Assembly (NCBI GenBank): GCA_038064975.1
Contig: JBBTRX010000007.1
Coordinates: forward strand, 1 to 57,025
DNA from: Patescibacteria group bacterium
GTDB lineage: Bacteria > Patescibacteriota > Minisyncoccia > UBA6257 > 1-14-0-10-40-38
Reading direction: 5' to 3'
DNA length: 57,025 nucleotides
Shown: positions 23,283 to 43,613 of the stretch, piece by piece
How positions within the stretch are numbered: the stretch's first letter is position 1
Layout of the letters: every line of letters begins with the position of its first letter
Position numbers and translations under genes: made by a program
Notes under the pieces: model-generated
Database searches by the model: none
Told to the model about the DNA's origin: nothing
Seen by the model: the letters and a program-made list of their open reading frames with translations, nothing else

Positions 23283-24119
23283 TCAATCGTTGTGTATCCT
23301 GATTTTAATTGTTCCGTTTATGTCAGTACGTACAATATTCTCTGCAAATACATTAATGCGATCAAGCGCCTCCTTCGTAGGATGTCCATAATTATTTTTA
23401 CCAACGCTCACTACCGCAAGACGCGGACTTACAGCTTTTAGAAATGCGTTACCAGAAGAAAATTTAGATCCATGATGCGGAACTTTTAATATATCTGACA
23501 CAAGACCAGTCCCCCGTGCTATGAGTTTTTGTTCCATCGCGATGGAAATATCTCCGGTAAAAAGAACTCCAAGCCCATTACCGTCGCTAAAGCGCGTTAC
23601 CACACTCGCGTCGTTTGGATCTTTTGGAAAAAATCCCTGCACAGGATTAAGAATGGCAAAATCATAATTTTTATACCGGATAGCATCTCCCGTATTGATT
23701 TGGATGTAGGGAATTTTTTTATCGTGAAGTGCGGAGACAAGTTCATGATATATATTACTCTCTCCGGGAATACCGTTGCCAACAAATGCCCCTACATCAT
23801 ACTCACTCACAACATCAAGAAATCCTCCAAAATGATCTGCTTGCGGATGACTCATCATGACCATATCAATATATCTGTCTCCCTGAGGGAGAATCTCTTG
23901 GATGCGCCTCAGTGCTAAACCGTTGCGCGGGCCCCCATCAATAAGTATTTGTACATTACCAGGGAGCGTGAGAAGGGACGCATCACCTTGTCCTACGTCA
24001 AGGAAAAAGAGCGATGACGTGTCATAGAGTCCCACGCTTCGCGCCACGGAAAACCAAACAATACTATTCGCAATTACTATAACCGCTATCACGAAGACTA
24101 TCCCTTTATTACTCGCCAT
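23283..24119 (-). CDS. ComEC-type MBL-fold hydrolase domain protein
   Basis: 'FLDVGQGD', 'SHPQADH', 'LFTGD', 'KVPHHGS', 'NNYGHP'. Confidence 0.9.
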   Translation of the reverse strand: MASNKGIVFVIAVIVIANSIVWFSVARSVGLYDTSSLFFLDVGQGDASLLTLPGNVQILIDGGPRNGLALRRIQEILPQGDRYIDMVMMSHPQADHFGGFLDVVSEYDVGAFVGNGIPGESNIYHELVSALHDKKIPYIQINTGDAIRYKNYDFAILNPVQGFFPKDPNDASVVTRFSDGNGLGVLFTGDISIAMEQKLIARGTGLVSDILKVPHHGSKFSSGNAFLKAVSPRLAVVSVGKNNYGHPTKEALDRINVFAENIVRTDINGTIKIRIHND

Positions 24120-25531
24120 ATGTTCTTCTTAATATAATGCACCCCGATTATGCCGGCTATAAGCGCCACCGCAAGGAGTATTCCGATACTATTTACCGAT
24201 ATGCCAAATGAAAAAGATGACGTGAATTCAATAATAGTAATAGCGTAACCGGAAAAGATATGAGTAATGAGCCCGATTGCTTGCGCAAAATATAACGAAA
24301 AGATTGAAGCGCAAAGCATAAGAAATCCGAAAAACATCGTAATAGGAATAATCGGCAATACGAGCATGTTGGTAATAACGGAAGTAAGTGAAACGAAATC
24401 AAAACGGAGCAATAATAACGGAAATACCGCCGCCTGCGCGGCAATCGTGTTTAAAAGGTTTTCCCGCCAGTGCAGAAATCCCGACTCTTCTTTAAATCGC
24501 AAAAATGTTTCAAGGCGCGGAGCGAGATATGCAATTCCAAAAACCGCTAGGAAGGAAAGCTGAAACCCAATATCGTATACAAGGATAAAAGGATTCTGTG
24601 CCACCATAACGAATGCAGAAACTGCGAGGGTATTCCGCAAGCTATAGGGACGGTCAACGACGTTCGCGAGCAAGAGTATGCCACCCATAATAGCTGCCCG
24701 CACTACGGATGCGGCAGCTCCCGTCATTATGACGAAAAGTGTTATCGCCGTAATTGCAACAATAAAACGCCATTTTCTTTTCAGAAAAAATCCTGCGATA
24801 AAAAGAATGCCGCCGGCAATGATCGTGATGTTATATCCAGAGAGAGCGATGAGATGTGTTGTGCCTGTACGTTTTAGCGCATCTTTAAATTCTTTACTCA
24901 TCGCTGCAGTTTCTCCGAAGAGAAGGCCGGAAACAAACGCTGCATGCTCTACCGGCAAGGCACGAGAAAGTACTTGCTCACTCGCGTGTTTTATCCTAAA
25001 TAATTTTTCTTTTATCGCATTCCCTTCATGCTCGCGAATGCGCACTACGGAAACTCTCGTACCCACACCGTACACGCCGTCTTTTTTGAGATATCCCGCG
25101 AATCCCCCCTCCGGAACAAGTACGGTACCTGTTAGTATTACCTTGTCTCCATACTTCATTTCCGGATACCGAGGAATCTTCGCGTATATTTTCCCCCGAT
25201 ATGCACCATCCACTTCTACAATAACAGTTTGATTTTCTCTCGCGTACGCGATGTCCTGTATAACGCCCGTCATTTCAACAGGTATGTCATAGGGGATGGT
25301 AAATCCGCTATTTCGCATTTCATATCCTTGAGCATACAATCCTCCCAAAATAATAATTCCCGCGAGCATCGCGAGTACTTTCTTATTCCAGAGATAAAAA
25401 ACGGCGCCCGTAAGTAACGCTATCGCAAACAGTACGACGATGCCATGCATGGATTGCGGAAGCATAGTCTGCACCGCAACACCTCCGAGGAAAAACACAA
25501 TAAAATAGAAAGCTCGATTATGGAGATGCAT
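24098..25531 (-). CDS. comEC: ComEC/Rec2 competence membrane protein (split from its MBL domain)
   Basis: 'GTTHLIALSGYN', 'SVVRAAIM', 'GFQLSF'. Confidence 0.93.
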   Translation of the reverse strand: MHLHNRAFYFIVFFLGGVAVQTMLPQSMHGIVVLFAIALLTGAVFYLWNKKVLAMLAGIIILGGLYAQGYEMRNSGFTIPYDIPVEMTGVIQDIAYARENQTVIVEVDGAYRGKIYAKIPRYPEMKYGDKVILTGTVLVPEGGFAGYLKKDGVYGVGTRVSVVRIREHEGNAIKEKLFRIKHASEQVLSRALPVEHAAFVSGLLFGETAAMSKEFKDALKRTGTTHLIALSGYNITIIAGGILFIAGFFLKRKWRFIVAITAITLFVIMTGAAASVVRAAIMGGILLLANVVDRPYSLRNTLAVSAFVMVAQNPFILVYDIGFQLSFLAVFGIAYLAPRLETFLRFKEESGFLHWRENLLNTIAAQAAVFPLLLLRFDFVSLTSVITNMLVLPIIPITMFFGFLMLCASIFSLYFAQAIGLITHIFSGYAITIIEFTSSFSFGISVNSIGILLAVALIAGIIGVHYIKKNIWRVIKG

Positions 25532-25629
25532 GACAGTTAAACAGTTGATCAGTTAATGAGTTGAATAGTTCACTTCAACATTCGAGCATTACAACATTAA
25601 TCATGGTTTTAGTATAAAACGAGACCATA

Positions 25630-25960
25630 AAAAAACCGAGTACATCACGTACTCGGTAGAGACATGCCTTTCTCCTAGACAGAGAGACGCTCTCCTTTGC
25701 CGTAACACTTCATACGACGAACAGCGCGCGGATGCAACGAATCTCTTGGAAAACCACGAGGCCCTTGCGTATGCGAGCGAAACCAACCAGGAGCTGGATG
25801 GCGAAGCTCATCCATCCGAAGCCACGTTATTTGATACCCCCCAAAGATTCCATGGGTGGGATCACAAAATCCGATAATGAGCAGAAGTTGAACAGGACGC
25901 TCTTTCACGGAAGCTCTCTTTCTTTTGACGAGTCACCAGGAAGAAACAGTCCAGTTTTTT
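25630..25960 (-). other. Terminated unit: either a 77-aa ORF (25675..25908) or a structured RNA
   Basis: accgagtac-gtgat-gtactcggt-T terminator; weak GTG start; possible long-range pairing agagag/ctctct. Confidence 0.35.
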
Positions 25961-25977
25961 ATATTAACAATCTCTTC

Positions 25978-26085
25978 TGAAAAAGAAAAGAACCCGACAC
26001 CCCTTGCGGGATGCCGGGCAACTCTCTTGGACGAGAGTTTAGCTTCGTACAGCGAAGGAGGAGCCAAGACTGCACGAAGTGTTCC
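25978..26085 (-). ncRNA. Candidate ~105-nt three-hairpin sRNA with anti-Shine-Dalgarno loop
   Basis: cttcgtgcag-[tcttggCTCCTCCTTcg]-ctgtacgaag; aactctc/gagagtt; cccggcatccc/gggtgtcggg-T terminator; TTGACT -35 upstream with a weak -10. Confidence 0.55.
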
Positions 26086-26124
26086 TATACTTTCGCATAT
26101 TTTTACAAATAGTCAATCCCTTAT

Positions 26125-26651
26125 AAAAGAAGAGGCCCGACGTCGTGAGACGTCGGGCCAGACAAGTTTTGTTATGCCGAGAAGCGTAGGGTGAGCGCTC
26201 CTCTCCTGTCTATGGCACTTTTTTAAAGAGAGCTTATTCTGGTCTTCTCCTCACCAAAGCGAGGCGAATCCAACGAGAGTCCTTGATTCCACGACTGCTT
26301 ACTCGCCATCCGCCAATGGACACCGCATCGTCAAGATGACAATGGTTGTTGCGAATGAGTATGCGAAGCTTTTTCGTGTTCACCAGGTTCAGCCCTTAGC
26401 ACCTTTCGGCAAATGGAAGCTGCTGACGTAATACGAGGATACTACCTCTTTTCACGCCTCATCGCTCCATCTTTATCTCAACACCCTTGGGGGGTGCATT
26501 GATACGCAGACTTCACGCCTGCACCGTCTAGTCCCTTCAGACTCGTTTTCGGCGATGTTGTCGACCCCTCTATGAAGAGGGCCATCGCCTCAAGTACACC
26601 GTATGTTCCGCCATTGACCCTCGGGTCCAACCGAAAGCCATTGACGTTGCT
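26125..26651 (-). ncRNA. Candidate large (~525 nt) structured ncRNA
   Basis: TTGACA-16-TATAAT promoter with extended TG (26685-26658); terminator 26134-26159; no minus-strand ORF in the track; multiple hairpins. Confidence 0.65.
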
Positions 26652-26742
26652 TTTGTCATTATAGCATACCTATTATTCTTGTCAAGTGCCCCCCTAACTT
26701 TTAGAAGGTTGGGAGGGCAAGCCCCTTTTAAACCCGTAAAAA

Positions 26743-27852
26743 CTAGAGAATTACGCCTCCTCCCAACATTTCACCGGATTTGGCATAAAACACAGCAGAT
26801 TGCCCCTCGGCGATGAATTTTTGCGGAACTGCAAAAATTAGTTTAGCGCGTTGTCCGGCAGGGCCGGATCCGGCTTTGCCGGACAAGTTCGCTTTTGCGA
26901 GCGGTGCGCGATATCGCACTCGAGCGTAGATGGAGGTGGAAGTAGTTAATTGGTGGATGGGATTAATGAAGTGCACGTTCGTAAGTTCAACTTCTTTGCG
27001 ATACAACGCTTTATTATTTTCTCCTTCGGCAACGGTAATGGTATTTGTCGCCATATCTTTACTTGCGACATAGTATGGACTCCCTGGGTGCTCTTTGCCT
27101 GCCTGCACGTTCAAATGGAGACCCTTGCGCTGTCCGATAGTGTAATTAAAAATGCCGTGATGCTCCCCTACAACTTTTCCATCCGTTGCTTTAATAACTC
27201 CAGTTTGCGCAGGAATATATTCACGTAAAAAATCCTGGAGCGTAATCTGTCCTAAAAAACATACACCTTGAGAATCCTTTTTCTCGGCGTTGGGAAGTCT
27301 AAATTTCTTTGCAAGCTTTCTCACTTCTGGTTTCGTATAATTCCCGATTGGAAAAAGACAATGCTTTAACTGTTTCTGTGTAAGCGTCCAAAGAAAATAA
27401 CTTTGATCCTTGTTCTTGTCCTTAGCCTGATACAGTGAATAACCAATCTTTTTATTTTTGAGATTTGAGATTTGAGATTTAATGTAGTGTCCCGTTGCCA
27501 CATAGTCCGCCCCCATTCCGAGTGCGTGTTCTAAAAACAATCCAAACTTTATTTCCTTATTACACATCACATCCGGATTTGGAGTGATGCCCTTCCGGTA
27601 GCCTTCTACCATATATTCAACTACGCGCTTTTTATATTCATCCTCAAAATCTAGTGTATAGAAAGGAATACCAAGCGTTTCCGCCGCACGGCGAGCATCC
27701 TCCGCGTCTCGATCCGCGCACCCGTCTACGTTCCAGCATTTCAAGTGTATACCTACTACGTTATATCCTTGTTTTTTGAGCAATGCGGCGGCTACAGACG
27801 AATCTACTCCTCCGCTCATTCCAACAAAAACTGTTTTTTTCTTGCCTGCCAT
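26743..27852 (-). CDS. mnmA: tRNA 2-thiouridylase MnmA
   Basis: 'MSGGVDSSV', 'TPNPDVMCN', 'ATGHY', 'KDQSYFL', 'DSQGVCF'. Confidence 0.97.
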   Translation of the reverse strand: MAGKKKTVFVGMSGGVDSSVAAALLKKQGYNVVGIHLKCWNVDGCADRDAEDARRAAETLGIPFYTLDFEDEYKKRVVEYMVEGYRKGITPNPDVMCNKEIKFGLFLEHALGMGADYVATGHYIKSQISNLKNKKIGYSLYQAKDKNKDQSYFLWTLTQKQLKHCLFPIGNYTKPEVRKLAKKFRLPNAEKKDSQGVCFLGQITLQDFLREYIPAQTGVIKATDGKVVGEHHGIFNYTIGQRKGLHLNVQAGKEHPGSPYYVASKDMATNTITVAEGENNKALYRKEVELTNVHFINPIHQLTTSTSIYARVRYRAPLAKANLSGKAGSGPAGQRAKLIFAVPQKFIAEGQSAVFYAKSGEMLGGGVIL

Positions 27853-37781: not shown

Positions 37782-37854
37782 ATATTTAACCCTCGTACTC
37801 CATGTATTTATTTTCTCACTATATTAAAAATGCATCAAATCTTATTTTCTTTTT

Positions 37855-38323
37855 AAAGAAAAAGACCCGACGTTCGAAAATGTCGGGTCGAGTGCGGGTC
37901 GCAGCCTCTTCCGTTGGTCAGCTCAAGGTCGAGCGACCGTTGCTGCAAGAAGACCCGTCATGGTCGGAGAGGTGAGGAGGACTGACGACATGAGACAGGA
38001 ACGCGTGGCCAGCAGGCGCTGACCACTGTTGTCAACAGGCGCGAACCAGTGATGGCGCGTCTCCTCCTCCGAGCCATGACGGGTGAAAGGTAGATGGAGC
38101 CCACTCCTTAGAGCGGGCTCCATTGGCAATCGAGACTCTCATTGTCCGATGAGTCTTCCCCGGCTTCTGCCAGAGTTGCTTGTGATCTCCTTTTACTCAT
38201 CCATCAAGCAGCTCATCCTTATCTCAAGGACAAGCGAGAGATGACTCACTACGAGACACGAAGAACTAGCGTGTACGGAACTACGAGAGTCAAGACTGCC
38301 ATCGAAAGGCGGCCCAAAGAACC
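37855..38323 (-). ncRNA. Candidate large (~470 nt) structured ncRNA
   Basis: TTGACA-18-TATCAT promoter (38359-38330); long helices; ends in GACCCGACGTT-family terminator copy 3 (37864-37889). Confidence 0.65.
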
Positions 38324-38403
38324 AAAATTATGATAGTAGATTTCTATGAATACTGTCAAGCAGCACTACTTATTGATTCAATAATATATGATACAATTTT
38401 TGT

Positions 38404-39616: not shown

Positions 39617-39691
39617 TAATCTCTCCTTTGTTAAAGAACGCAAAAAACCAGAAACTACCCTAAGGTTATTCTATCTTCTTTTATCTATAAA

Positions 39692-39860
39692 TGAAAAGAG
39701 CCACTAACCCCTGCGGGTTAGTGGCTGCGCTAGCCCCTTCCGAGGTAGCGGCTTAGAAAATGACCAACGGAAGGACTCTTTGTGCGGCCGCGATGAATCC
39801 CTGAGAATCAATCTTATGCTTTCGCACTCATCGACCTCTCAGCCGTTGGTTCAAGTACTA
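39692..39860 (-). ncRNA. Candidate ~165-nt three-way-junction RNA with terminator
   Basis: accaacgg/ccgttggt closing helix; ctgaga/tctcag arm capped by tgc-GAAA-gca; ggattc/gagtcc arm; agccactaacc/ggttagtggct terminator. Confidence 0.6.
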
Positions 39861-39945
39861 CCATACTACATCCATGCTGAAGCATTAGTAAATACTCTTA
39901 CAACACCGTTCTTGACATATTGATTTTATCTATGCGAGAATAACT

Positions 39946-40021
39946 CGACGGCTGGAGGTTGTCGTAGGGCGACCGCACATGAGCGCAGAAACCCTGACTC
40001 ATGACCAGCTGTCATTTTTTT
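39946..40021 (+). ncRNA. Candidate ~75-nt three-way-junction sRNA
   Basis: TTGACA at 39912 with TGn-GAGAAT; gacggctgg/ccagctgtc, ggttgtc/ggcgacc, catgag/ctcatg; T7 tail. Confidence 0.6.
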
Positions 40022-40081
40022 GCGCACTTAACCGTTTCGGTTTTAGAACCTGGTTGTACTCAATGATACCTTTCAGCTCAA

Positions 40082-40153
40082 ACTGACTACATAACTCTAT
40101 CAACCTGGCAAAAAGTGCATCCACAATTCGAGGTCTCCCTCGATACGGGGCAC
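40082..40153. repeat. 72-bp direct repeat, copy 1
   Basis: 65/72 identical to 42966-43037. Confidence 0.92.
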
Positions 40154-40228
40154 AGCCCATTTAGGACGTTTTGTTTTGCGTCAGTCGGCACAACTCGAGT
40201 ACTTAAATCGCCTCTGCTATACTAATAG

Positions 40229-40350
40229 CACTTGGTCCAATGGCAGAGCTCTAGAGCTCTGGAACTACCTGTGGCCACTTCAAAAGGTCCTCCCATTAGC
40301 CATTTTCAAGGCCGCCACTTCTCTCCGGAAGAGTGGCGGCCGCTTTTATT
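40229..40350 (+). ncRNA. Candidate ~120-nt sRNA
   Basis: TGn-TATACT at 40215-40223; cagagctc-ta-gagctctg palindrome; ggccgccact/agtggcggcc terminator; only a 4-codon ORF. Confidence 0.45.
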
Positions 40351-40445
40351 AAAACCTCTTGATTTCTAGTTGTGCAAACAAAAATAGCGGCTGAATCCAT
40401 TGTCGTAAGACGACAGATTCAACCGCTATGTAGCGCTGATAGAGA

Positions 40446-42741: not shown

Positions 42742-42753
42742 CGATAGCTAATC

Positions 42754-42784
42754 AAAGACCCGACGTTCAACGTCGGGTCTTTTT
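42754..42784 (+). terminator. GACCCGACGTT-family terminator, copy 4
   Basis: aaagacccgacgttcaacgtcgggtctttt. Confidence 0.75.
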
Positions 42785-42965
42785 CTTACTCTCATCATGC
42801 TCAAGTCCCCGAATGTTCGGGGACTTCATATTGGGTTGGAGCACGATTCTACACAGGTTCAGGGACGTTGTGGACTTCAGGGAGGTTGGAGCGAAATGGA
42901 TCAAGCCACCCTTCCCTTCTCTACGGTTACCTACTTGTTGCGCTCGAGGAAACTTCTGATCTCCG

Positions 42966-43037
42966 ACTGACTACATAACTCAACCAACCTCTCAAAGAGT
43001 GCATCCAAAGTTCGAGGTCTCCCTCGATACGGGGCAC
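42966..43037. repeat. 72-bp direct repeat, copy 2
   Basis: 65/72 identical to 40082-40153; last 27 bp identical. Confidence 0.92.
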
Positions 43038-43106
43038 TAAAATCTTTGCTTTTTCGCCTTAATTTCTATAGGATTTCGTAAGCACATTCCCAAAGGAGGG
43101 ATCCCC

Positions 43107-43337
43107 ATGCCCATCACTGCCTTTCTAGTGAGACTCCCCTTCATATTCTTACTTGCGCTTATCGGCGTTTGTGCCCCTATGCACGATCGCGTGTATTATA
43201 TGATGCAAGGTTTAGAAGGGCATATTCTGGAACATGACAATGAAGTAATCATAAGACGAAAACTACGTCCATTGAACCGTTTTGAAAAGTGGCTTTTCGG
43301 GCCTATCGTGGCGTCTGAACACAAAAGAAAGGGATAA
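43107..43337 (+). CDS. Small hypothetical protein with N-terminal hydrophobic segment
   Basis: AAGGAGG RBS. Confidence 0.6.
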   Translation: MPITAFLVRLPFIFLLALIGVCAPMHDRVYYMMQGLEGHILEHDNEVIIRRKLRPLNRFEKWLFGPIVASEHKRKG

Positions 43338-43613
43338 AAAAGTCATGTCTCCGCTCCCCCAGGAAGTAGAACGAGTGAAAGCCAATATCTCACATATTCC
43401 CGGAATCAGAGTTTTGCCTTCAATTGGTGAGTGGATATTGGTAGCGACTAGCGAGTCGCGGAAGTTCTGCGAGAAGCTGTACAAGCTTGATAATAAACCA
43501 CCTCCCCGAGCAAATTTTTGCTCGGTTTTTTTATTTCATTAATATTTCACAACAATAATAGTTATATTAAAAACAGTTCTCTGTTCTTCTACAACTCAAA
43601 GGAGGTAACTTAA

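Follow-up and report, generated by a model that had tools for sequence, protein, structure and literature searches.

What, if anything, is encoded in the largest gene-free interval of a small bacterial genome? The window analysed here, a stretch of 57,025 nucleotides from a Patescibacteria group bacterium, is one contig (C7) of a CPR-type genome of 782,495 bp in 11 contigs, with a completeness of 98.4%. ORFs of at least 90 aa cover 89% of this genome, and among the 559 stretches lacking such an ORF the longest, at 1211 nt, lies between mnmA and comEC; the second longest is part of the 16S rRNA gene. A preliminary description of this DNA, made from its letters alone, had placed in the mnmA-comEC gap an unrecognised non-coding transcript of ~525 nt (hereafter the unit). 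The coordinates given there are correct, and the unit is read from the minus strand, as is comEC. Its neighbours are mnmA, comEC, efp and a gene for a VirD4-like ATPase. In the direction of reading, the locus is composed as follows.

26743-27852, minus strand: mnmA, the upstream neighbour of the ORF-free gap.

26688..26718, minus strand: G+C-rich palindrome or hairpin, GCCCTCCCAAC-9 nt-GTTAGGGGGGC, with its end 2 nt upstream of the -35 box.

26658..26685, minus strand: sigma-70-type promoter TTGACA-16-TATAAT with an extended -10 TG, a 12/12 match.

26126..26652, minus strand: predicted transcript body of ~525 nt, whose start would lie ~6-7 nt past the -10 box.

26609..26646, minus strand: 5' hairpin of 5 + 10 pairs (pair probability 0.98-0.99).

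26407..26526, minus strand: central three-hairpin domain, RNA nt 127-246 (inner helices 0.85-1.00), the basis of covariance model R1.

26290..26378, minus strand: long irregular stem, RNA nt 275-363, with four helices (probability 0.72-0.99).

26249..26264, minus strand: hairpin CCUCGC-UUUG-GUGAGG (probability 0.99).

26124..26159, minus strand: intrinsic terminator T1 with its tail, UCUUCUUUUA (pair probability 1.00).

25985..26133, minus strand: downstream 149-nt stretch with two hairpins and terminator T2 (folding z -6.25 on the minus strand, -1.98 on the plus strand).

25630..25984, minus strand: remainder of the ORF-free gap, ending in terminator T3 (25657..25635).

24098-25531, minus strand: the comEC ORF with the Competence domain, the downstream neighbour of the gap.

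The promoter consists of TTGACA at 26685-26680, a 16-nt spacer and TGcTATAAT at 26663-26658, and thus scores 12/12 with the TG in addition, fully bearing out its earlier description as near-perfect. Perfect TTGACA-N16-18-TATAAT sites number 15 in the 782-kb genome, both strands counted, against a chance expectation of ~0.7 by our own base-composition estimate; 10 of them precede an ORF led by a Shine-Dalgarno sequence (SD) and one precedes the tmRNA gene, and the promoter of the RNase P RNA gene is a one-mismatch version of the same sequence. Judged by these counts, perfect promoters are real signals in this genome, and that of the unit is likewise meaningful. Loose promoter-like sites (at least 9/12) show no enrichment in the 1.6-kb region, with 1 against 1.7 +/- 1.2 in shuffled sequences. 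Some of the other perfect promoters deserve mention in their own right. Two on contig C2, at ~158107 and ~38121 (minus), have no SD-led ORF or tRNA within 300-400 nt and no Rfam match at E<=0.1. Three others, at C1 ~43391, C2 ~24806 and C6 ~36714 (minus), share the leader word CATAGCYCTTTGATA and are followed 156-162 nt downstream by SD-led ORFs of 196-219 aa; together they have the look of paralogs sharing a long, conserved 5' leader.

At its other end, the unit closes with a stem of 11 pairs (9 G-C) at 26159..26134, which carries a 4-nt loop UCAC and is followed by the tail TCTTCTTTTA, in agreement with the GC-rich terminator of the preliminary description. The GC-rich interior claimed there is likewise found, with a G+C content of 0.52 for the ~525-nt unit against 43.7% for the genome. 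The stem of T2 (26019..25992) has 12 pairs and stands ~140 nt beyond T1; no promoter of its own was found for the 25985..26133 stretch, which we read as a back-up terminator region insulating comEC. A 360-nt stretch ends in T3; within it the plus strand looks weakly coding-like at 25700-25819, and no homolog was found for the plus-strand open stretch 25569-25874.

This arrangement bears on a reading in which the unit opens a leader of 1.1 kb that acts in cis on the comEC operon, with comEC fed by read-through of T1-T3 (attenuation or processive antitermination). The unit and comEC share a strand, three minus-strand terminators stand in series before comEC, 25400-27000 has no promoter-like site of at least 9/12 other than that of the unit, and in relatives comEC directly follows its upstream gene in an operon-like manner. 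However, T1, T2 and T3 are all strong, no alternative antiterminator pairing is visible by eye, no riboswitch, T-box or leader family matches, and the interval from T3 to the start of comEC has a weak promoter-like site (~8/12, by eye). Insulation is the better explanation for three strong terminators, and we regard the leader reading as quite improbable. The comEC gene itself is split into two overlapping ORFs in window 23283-25531, one with the DUF4131 and Competence domains (477 aa) and the other with a metallo-beta-lactamase fold (278 aa), a layout also present in relatives of the same family. An 8-nt tandem repeat, CAGTTRAW, in 3.6-4.8 copies (window 25533-25570) abuts its start codon, and more than 20 further sites of the genome have stretches that are 74-100% alike to this repeat over 21-60 nt.

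Does the unit belong to a known RNA family? Over the whole window, Rfam at its gathering thresholds returned 3 tRNAs and nothing else. At E<=10 the region 25400-26900 gave 6 weak matches, the best of which scored 19.4 bits where the cut-off is 44 bits; the terminator hairpin is covered by three of them, including the two best. The Rfam 15 models tested took in OLE, ROOL, GOLLD, HEARO, raiA, 6S, SRP, tmRNA, RNase P, group I/II introns, riboswitches and T-box, and all families were rejected for the unit, none reaching its gathering threshold; the preliminary description of the transcript as unrecognised thus holds. Three other stretches of the window (42742-43613, 39644-40445 and 37782-38369), of 588-872 nt each without an ORF of at least 90 aa, also have no Rfam match at gathering thresholds.

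The suggestion that the unit is neither tmRNA, RNase P RNA nor SRP RNA can be made firmer for each of the three. The first two are ruled out by genes found elsewhere in the genome, the tmRNA at C2:111626-111970 (122 bits) and the RNase P RNA at C6:51481-51856 (99.6 bits). Neither small nor large SRP RNA finds a match in this genome even at E<=10, the SRP_SPB and SRP54 domains (PF02978 and PF00448) are absent from it, and it holds no SRP-type DTAGR ORF. The unit is ruled out as an SRP RNA because the genome has neither Ffh nor FtsY. A search for Ffh/FtsY in 40 relatives gave weak matches only, the best at 23.6 bits and short in all but one, with the two best identified as an APS kinase and a Mur ligase; PF00448 at E<=1e-10 was found in 0 of 81 genomes of the phylum, and small SRP RNA in 0 of 41 genomes of the order. 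Absence of the SRP pathway from many CPR bacteria is already reported, one study describing SRP subunits as absent in many of them (PMC8080830), and its absence here marks the organism as CPR-type. The 6S RNA model (RF00013) has no match in this genome, a silence that says little, since the model detects 6S in only 5 of 14 control genomes.

Could the unit encode a protein, or be the remains of a gene that did? Its longest minus-strand ORFs, of 50 aa (TTG start) and 49 aa (GTG start), have no properly spaced SD, and no SD-led ORF was found in the ~525 nt, which upholds the earlier claim that no ORF there is backed by a ribosome-binding site. The six frames of the 1211-nt gap are stop-ridden, with 13 to 20 stops each, and TAA, TAG and TGA occur in every frame, so that no recoding opens a frame; a gene written in an alternative genetic code was accordingly rejected, as no frame is interrupted by one stop kind alone. 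A 3-periodic Markov coding model trained on 348 long ORFs of this genome scores the unit between -0.08 and -0.12 in all six frames, and the RNase P RNA, tmRNA and 16S rRNA of this genome fall within the same limits; for reference, real in-frame windows average +0.041 and the median for SD-led ORFs of 60-130 aa is 0.002.

Protein searches agree. Against Pfam, the six read-through frames gave nothing above threshold and two sub-threshold matches (E 0.028 and 0.087). The three minus frames had 0 matches in six-frame translations of 60 relatives; one of them had 0 matches by phmmer in 1.84 billion representative proteins, and the other two had 0 in a 5.8-billion protein collection. The plus-strand frames were searched against Pfam alone. 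No sign was therefore found of a decayed protein gene, which the preliminary description had named as a way in which it could be wrong: these searches gave no residual protein similarity, and no frame of the unit has a residual codon signature.

A coding role of another kind would be to supply very small peptides, one or more, from the unit as an mRNA or a dual-function RNA; the candidates are the 50-codon TTG ORF at 26630..26478 and a 28-codon ORF at 26309..26223. From an internal AUG with GAGG two bases upstream, 35 codons of the longer candidate can be read, and it is the least negative ORF in the unit at -0.036, between the 10th and 25th percentiles of 243 SD-led ORFs (60-130 aa). Three AUGs in the unit have G-rich, SD-like words before them. 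In addition, tiny ORFs may be used in this genome, since two SD-led mini-ORFs of 4 codons lie in a second ORF-less unit, on contig C6. Against such peptides, the SD spacing is 2 nt rather than the 5-6 nt of the sibling genes introduced below, none of the three minus frames has a homolog, the remaining small ORFs score -0.066 to -0.106, and ~370 of the 525 nt would stay untranslated. We consider this explanation distinctly unlikely.

If the unit is not translated, is it folded? Its minimum free energy (MFE) is -200.4 kcal/mol. In the direction of transcription this gives a z of -4.65, compared with -1.28 for the opposite strand, and leaving out the terminator still yields -4.1. Among 578 windows of 528 nt drawn at random from the genome, just 2 lie this far below the G+C trend, one of them at the tmRNA locus, and the unit ranks third lowest of the 579. 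For RNA controls from the same genome, z was -3.7 (tmRNA) and -6.0 (RNase P RNA), and two mRNA pieces gave +1.1 and -2.3. Of the four hairpins named in the preliminary description, three are in the MFE structure, CCCUCU/AGAGGG with a pair probability of 0.82, GCAGGC/GUCUGC with 1.00 and CCUCGC/GUGAGG with 0.99, but cc-GAAA-gg is not predicted as such. The 4-bp helix closing the central domain has a pair probability of just 0.12. A very negative z is not diagnostic here, because comparable predicted folding is reached by two protein-coding units of this genome that have their promoter module in common with the unit (z -4.69 sense and -4.86 antisense for one, -2.55 and -4.55 for the other). The contrast lies in the strands: the unit folds strongly on its transcribed strand alone, whereas these siblings do so at least as strongly in antisense. 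Thus, the unit looks like a structured RNA in these predictions, with the folding of the sibling units as a caveat.

Is the unit conserved? In blastn searches it matched only itself in its own genome, gave a single 27-nt match, in the promoter part, in 60 relatives, and had no homolog among phages and plasmids. Of 400 genomes of the order, 7 gave scattered matches of 22-40 nt; with per-genome E values from 1.7e-4 to 7e-3, these are no more than chance would produce in a search of that many genomes. Covariance model R1 found 0 matches at E<=0.1 in 100 relatives and reached at best E 0.48 at 8 syntenic loci. A comEC-based scan of metagenome contigs gave no homolog of the unit, and a scan of such contigs for the 20-nt palindrome of the promoter module gave 34 loci, all in unrelated contexts and none matching the 4-kb region by blastn. 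Since the unit has no internal repeats of note, a CRISPR, TIGR or ToxI-type array was ruled out. The stretch is contained in 7 public runs from 2 studies, all of DNA and including groundwater metagenomes; four of these runs were compared and contain only the identical strain: every listed contig piece that spans the gap has the same sequence, and none of the listed differences falls inside it.

The preliminary description had proposed collecting homologs between mnmA and comEC, and had offered the unit as a possible new class comparable to OLE and ROOL. Neither suggestion fared well: the stretches that follow mnmA in relatives are unrelated to the unit, and no family emerged in the 400 genomes of the order, the 100 relatives or the metagenome scans by comEC and palindrome. 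The unit belongs to no known family, and with one sequence and no relatives of it found, the term new class is not warranted.

To see what stands at this site in related genomes, we compared ~4.4 kb downstream of mnmA in 7 relatives of the family. In 6 of the 7 comEC is present there, each time with a ~180-aa, cobO/BtuR-like P-loop gene directly before it, and the start of the cobO-like gene is also visible at an eighth locus (relative G001). This gene is absent from the whole genome of our organism by tblastn. Three of its orthologs gave weak colinear tblastn matches at ~25820-25963 (E 0.064 to 4.8); a cobO relic in the gap was rejected, as a profile of 6 orthologs scores negative bits. Several relatives carry 300-700 nt of lineage-specific sequence directly after mnmA; small SD-led ORFs occur in part of it, and part folds strongly (G007, z -6.4; G004, z -3.7). 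No similarity was found among the post-mnmA regions of this genome, G001, G004, G007, G008, G009 and G010. These unrelated, lineage-specific stretches suggest that the site after mnmA is a hot spot for inserts with fast turnover. As a separate observation on mnmA, its match in one other genome of the order (G017:C5:2913-3980) contains two TGA codons in frame, which may reflect another genetic code or a broken gene.

The sequence just upstream of the transcript links the unit to two other places in the genome. A pattern search found a ~65-nt module of hairpin plus promoter at exactly three sites, window 26688-26724 and one site each on C2 and C6; by blastn, the copy at C2:131395-131459 is 79% identical over 68 nt and that at C6:129221-129302 is 64% identical over 84 nt. 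The module is absent from 60 relatives, and its 26-nt pattern does not occur in the genome-contig or viral-contig collections. The palindrome that it contains may be an operator or the 3' hairpin of the mnmA mRNA. Each of the other two copies heads a sibling unit, at C2 ~130870-131390 and C6 ~128810-129240, which, like the unit, ends in its own terminator, falls in the same size range (525 and 426 nt; 426-528 nt for the three together) and is inserted into a conserved gene pair: mnmA|comEC for the unit, ruvA|Mur ligase and secY|adk for the siblings. Unlike the unit, both siblings carry SD-led orphan ORFs, of 124 aa and 100 aa, with an SD spacing of 5-6 nt and gene-like in-frame coding scores of -0.018 and +0.001. 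In tblastn at E<=10 the sibling proteins match only themselves and three short stretches elsewhere, none of them in the unit. Neither a Pfam nor a PHROG family matches the 100-aa protein, whose structural model is of low confidence (pLDDT 53.5 and 0.52). Its nearest structural clusters in the ESM Atlas are, in 10 of 10 cases, sigma-70 region 4 proteins (TM 0.49-0.64, below the bar of the tool). Because these look-alikes are helix-turn-helix proteins of the sigma-70 region 4 kind, the 100-aa protein is a candidate for the factor that binds the shared palindrome, which we offer as a lead only.

These siblings raise the question of whether the unit belongs, dead or degenerate, to a set of small orphan-gene cassettes specific to this genome, its ORF lost, perhaps still transcribed, and without a function of its own. 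This is a real rival, since siblings with the same promoter module encode orphan proteins and fold as strongly. Several observations are consistent with it: (i) The module, the size range of 426-528 nt, the layout and the splitting of a gene pair are common to all three units. (ii) At its two other sites the module drives a protein gene. (iii) Relatives carry unrelated inserts after mnmA, some with SD-led small ORFs. (iv) The lack of conservation of the unit is what would be predicted for a dying gene. However, the six frames of the unit score -0.08 to -0.12 whereas the siblings score ~0 in frame; stop density in all frames is about that of random sequence of the same composition, by our own estimate; and the unit has no similarity to the sibling proteins and no protein match in any library searched. 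A relic old enough for this would not be expected to retain a 12/12 promoter and a perfect 11-bp terminator, and a streamlined genome of 782 kb would be expected to delete it, yet the unit sits in the largest ORF-free gap. We therefore judge a dead cassette unlikely.

Taken as a whole, the best single reading of the unit is that of a non-coding RNA. In its specific form, this is a stand-alone gene for a lineage-restricted, independently transcribed and structured RNA of ~525 nt, found so far in this organism alone, a proposal that we hold tentatively and put somewhat short of probable. Chance, or an explanation other than those set out here, takes up whatever likelihood the named readings leave. 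Under the non-coding RNA reading, RNA polymerase would start near 26651 and stop at T1 (26159..26134), and T2 would catch read-through of T1, sparing comEC from a strong promoter. The RNA is predicted to fold into at least 10 stable local hairpins, comprising the 5' hairpin, the three-hairpin central domain and the long irregular 3' stem. Most likely it would be a stable, trans-acting RNA that binds protein or has a regulatory task, and not a short sRNA working by base pairing. Because the palindrome upstream of the -35 box is common to those three units alone, the RNA is probably co-regulated with the genes for the 124-aa and 100-aa orphan proteins. A bolder version, which we think unlikely, would make the unit the first-seen member of a new kind of large structured CPR RNA, retained in a streamlined genome as the RNA part of a regulon of three units specific to that genome; the sibling protein, stand-alone and sigma-region-4-like, would read their common palindromic operator. 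Large orphan RNAs of this sort would then recur in these genomes, as a second ORF-less unit with the same perfect promoter type, on contig C6, suggests.

How does such an RNA compare with known ones? OLE RNA (Rfam RF01071) is a highly structured bacterial non-coding RNA of ~600 nt with its own transcription unit; it forms a conserved family with covariation, is found in Firmicutes and has an adjacent gene for a membrane-protein partner, oapA. The unit resembles it in large size, in high structure (here predicted) and in having its own transcription unit, but it has no Rfam match and no family, and its neighbours are mnmA, comEC, efp and the VirD4-like ATPase gene. An assignment to OLE was rejected, as no oapA lies beside the unit and the host has a 782-kb CPR-type genome. 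ROOL and GOLLD, of 500-800 nt and present in many genomes, had no known biochemical role when first described. The unit falls in their size class but was found in one genome, with neither an Rfam match nor a tRNA or phage neighbourhood. With 6S RNA it would have in common a strong sigma-70 promoter and abundance, both of which are only expected for the unit; it is about three times longer, and its predicted fold is multi-branched rather than a rod with a central bubble. Typical trans-acting sRNAs have 50-300 nt, so the unit is much longer, and it lies in a CPR genome. It also resembles the species-specific sRNA and ncRNA genes of bacteria predicted from promoters and terminators, which are likewise orphan intergenic units with no ORF and no conservation beyond the species. 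In the portions of the literature reached by a full-text search, no report of large non-coding RNAs in CPR bacteria was found.

CPR bacteria have tiny genomes and few recognised regulators. If the non-coding RNA reading is true, retention of a 525-nt RNA gene in the longest non-coding gap of a 782-kb genome would mean that these bacteria invest in lineage-specific RNA functions, and the RNA and the two sibling units would form a small, testable regulon. At present the unit is one sequence from one strain, a candidate and not yet a discovery.

The second ORF-less unit, outside the window at C6 ~149835-150461 (minus), is ~590 nt long, with a perfect TTGACA-16-TGcTATAAT promoter, a 14-bp terminator, a folding z of -3.30 and no Rfam match. 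Its two perfect SD-led mini-ORFs of 4 codons encode MGWP and MGWA, each followed by a stop. Paralogy between it and the unit was rejected, the best local alignment scoring 23 against a null of 20.1 +/- 2.1, with 28 of 200 shuffles as good. Given this second case, orphan units of this kind may perhaps occur repeatedly in the genome.
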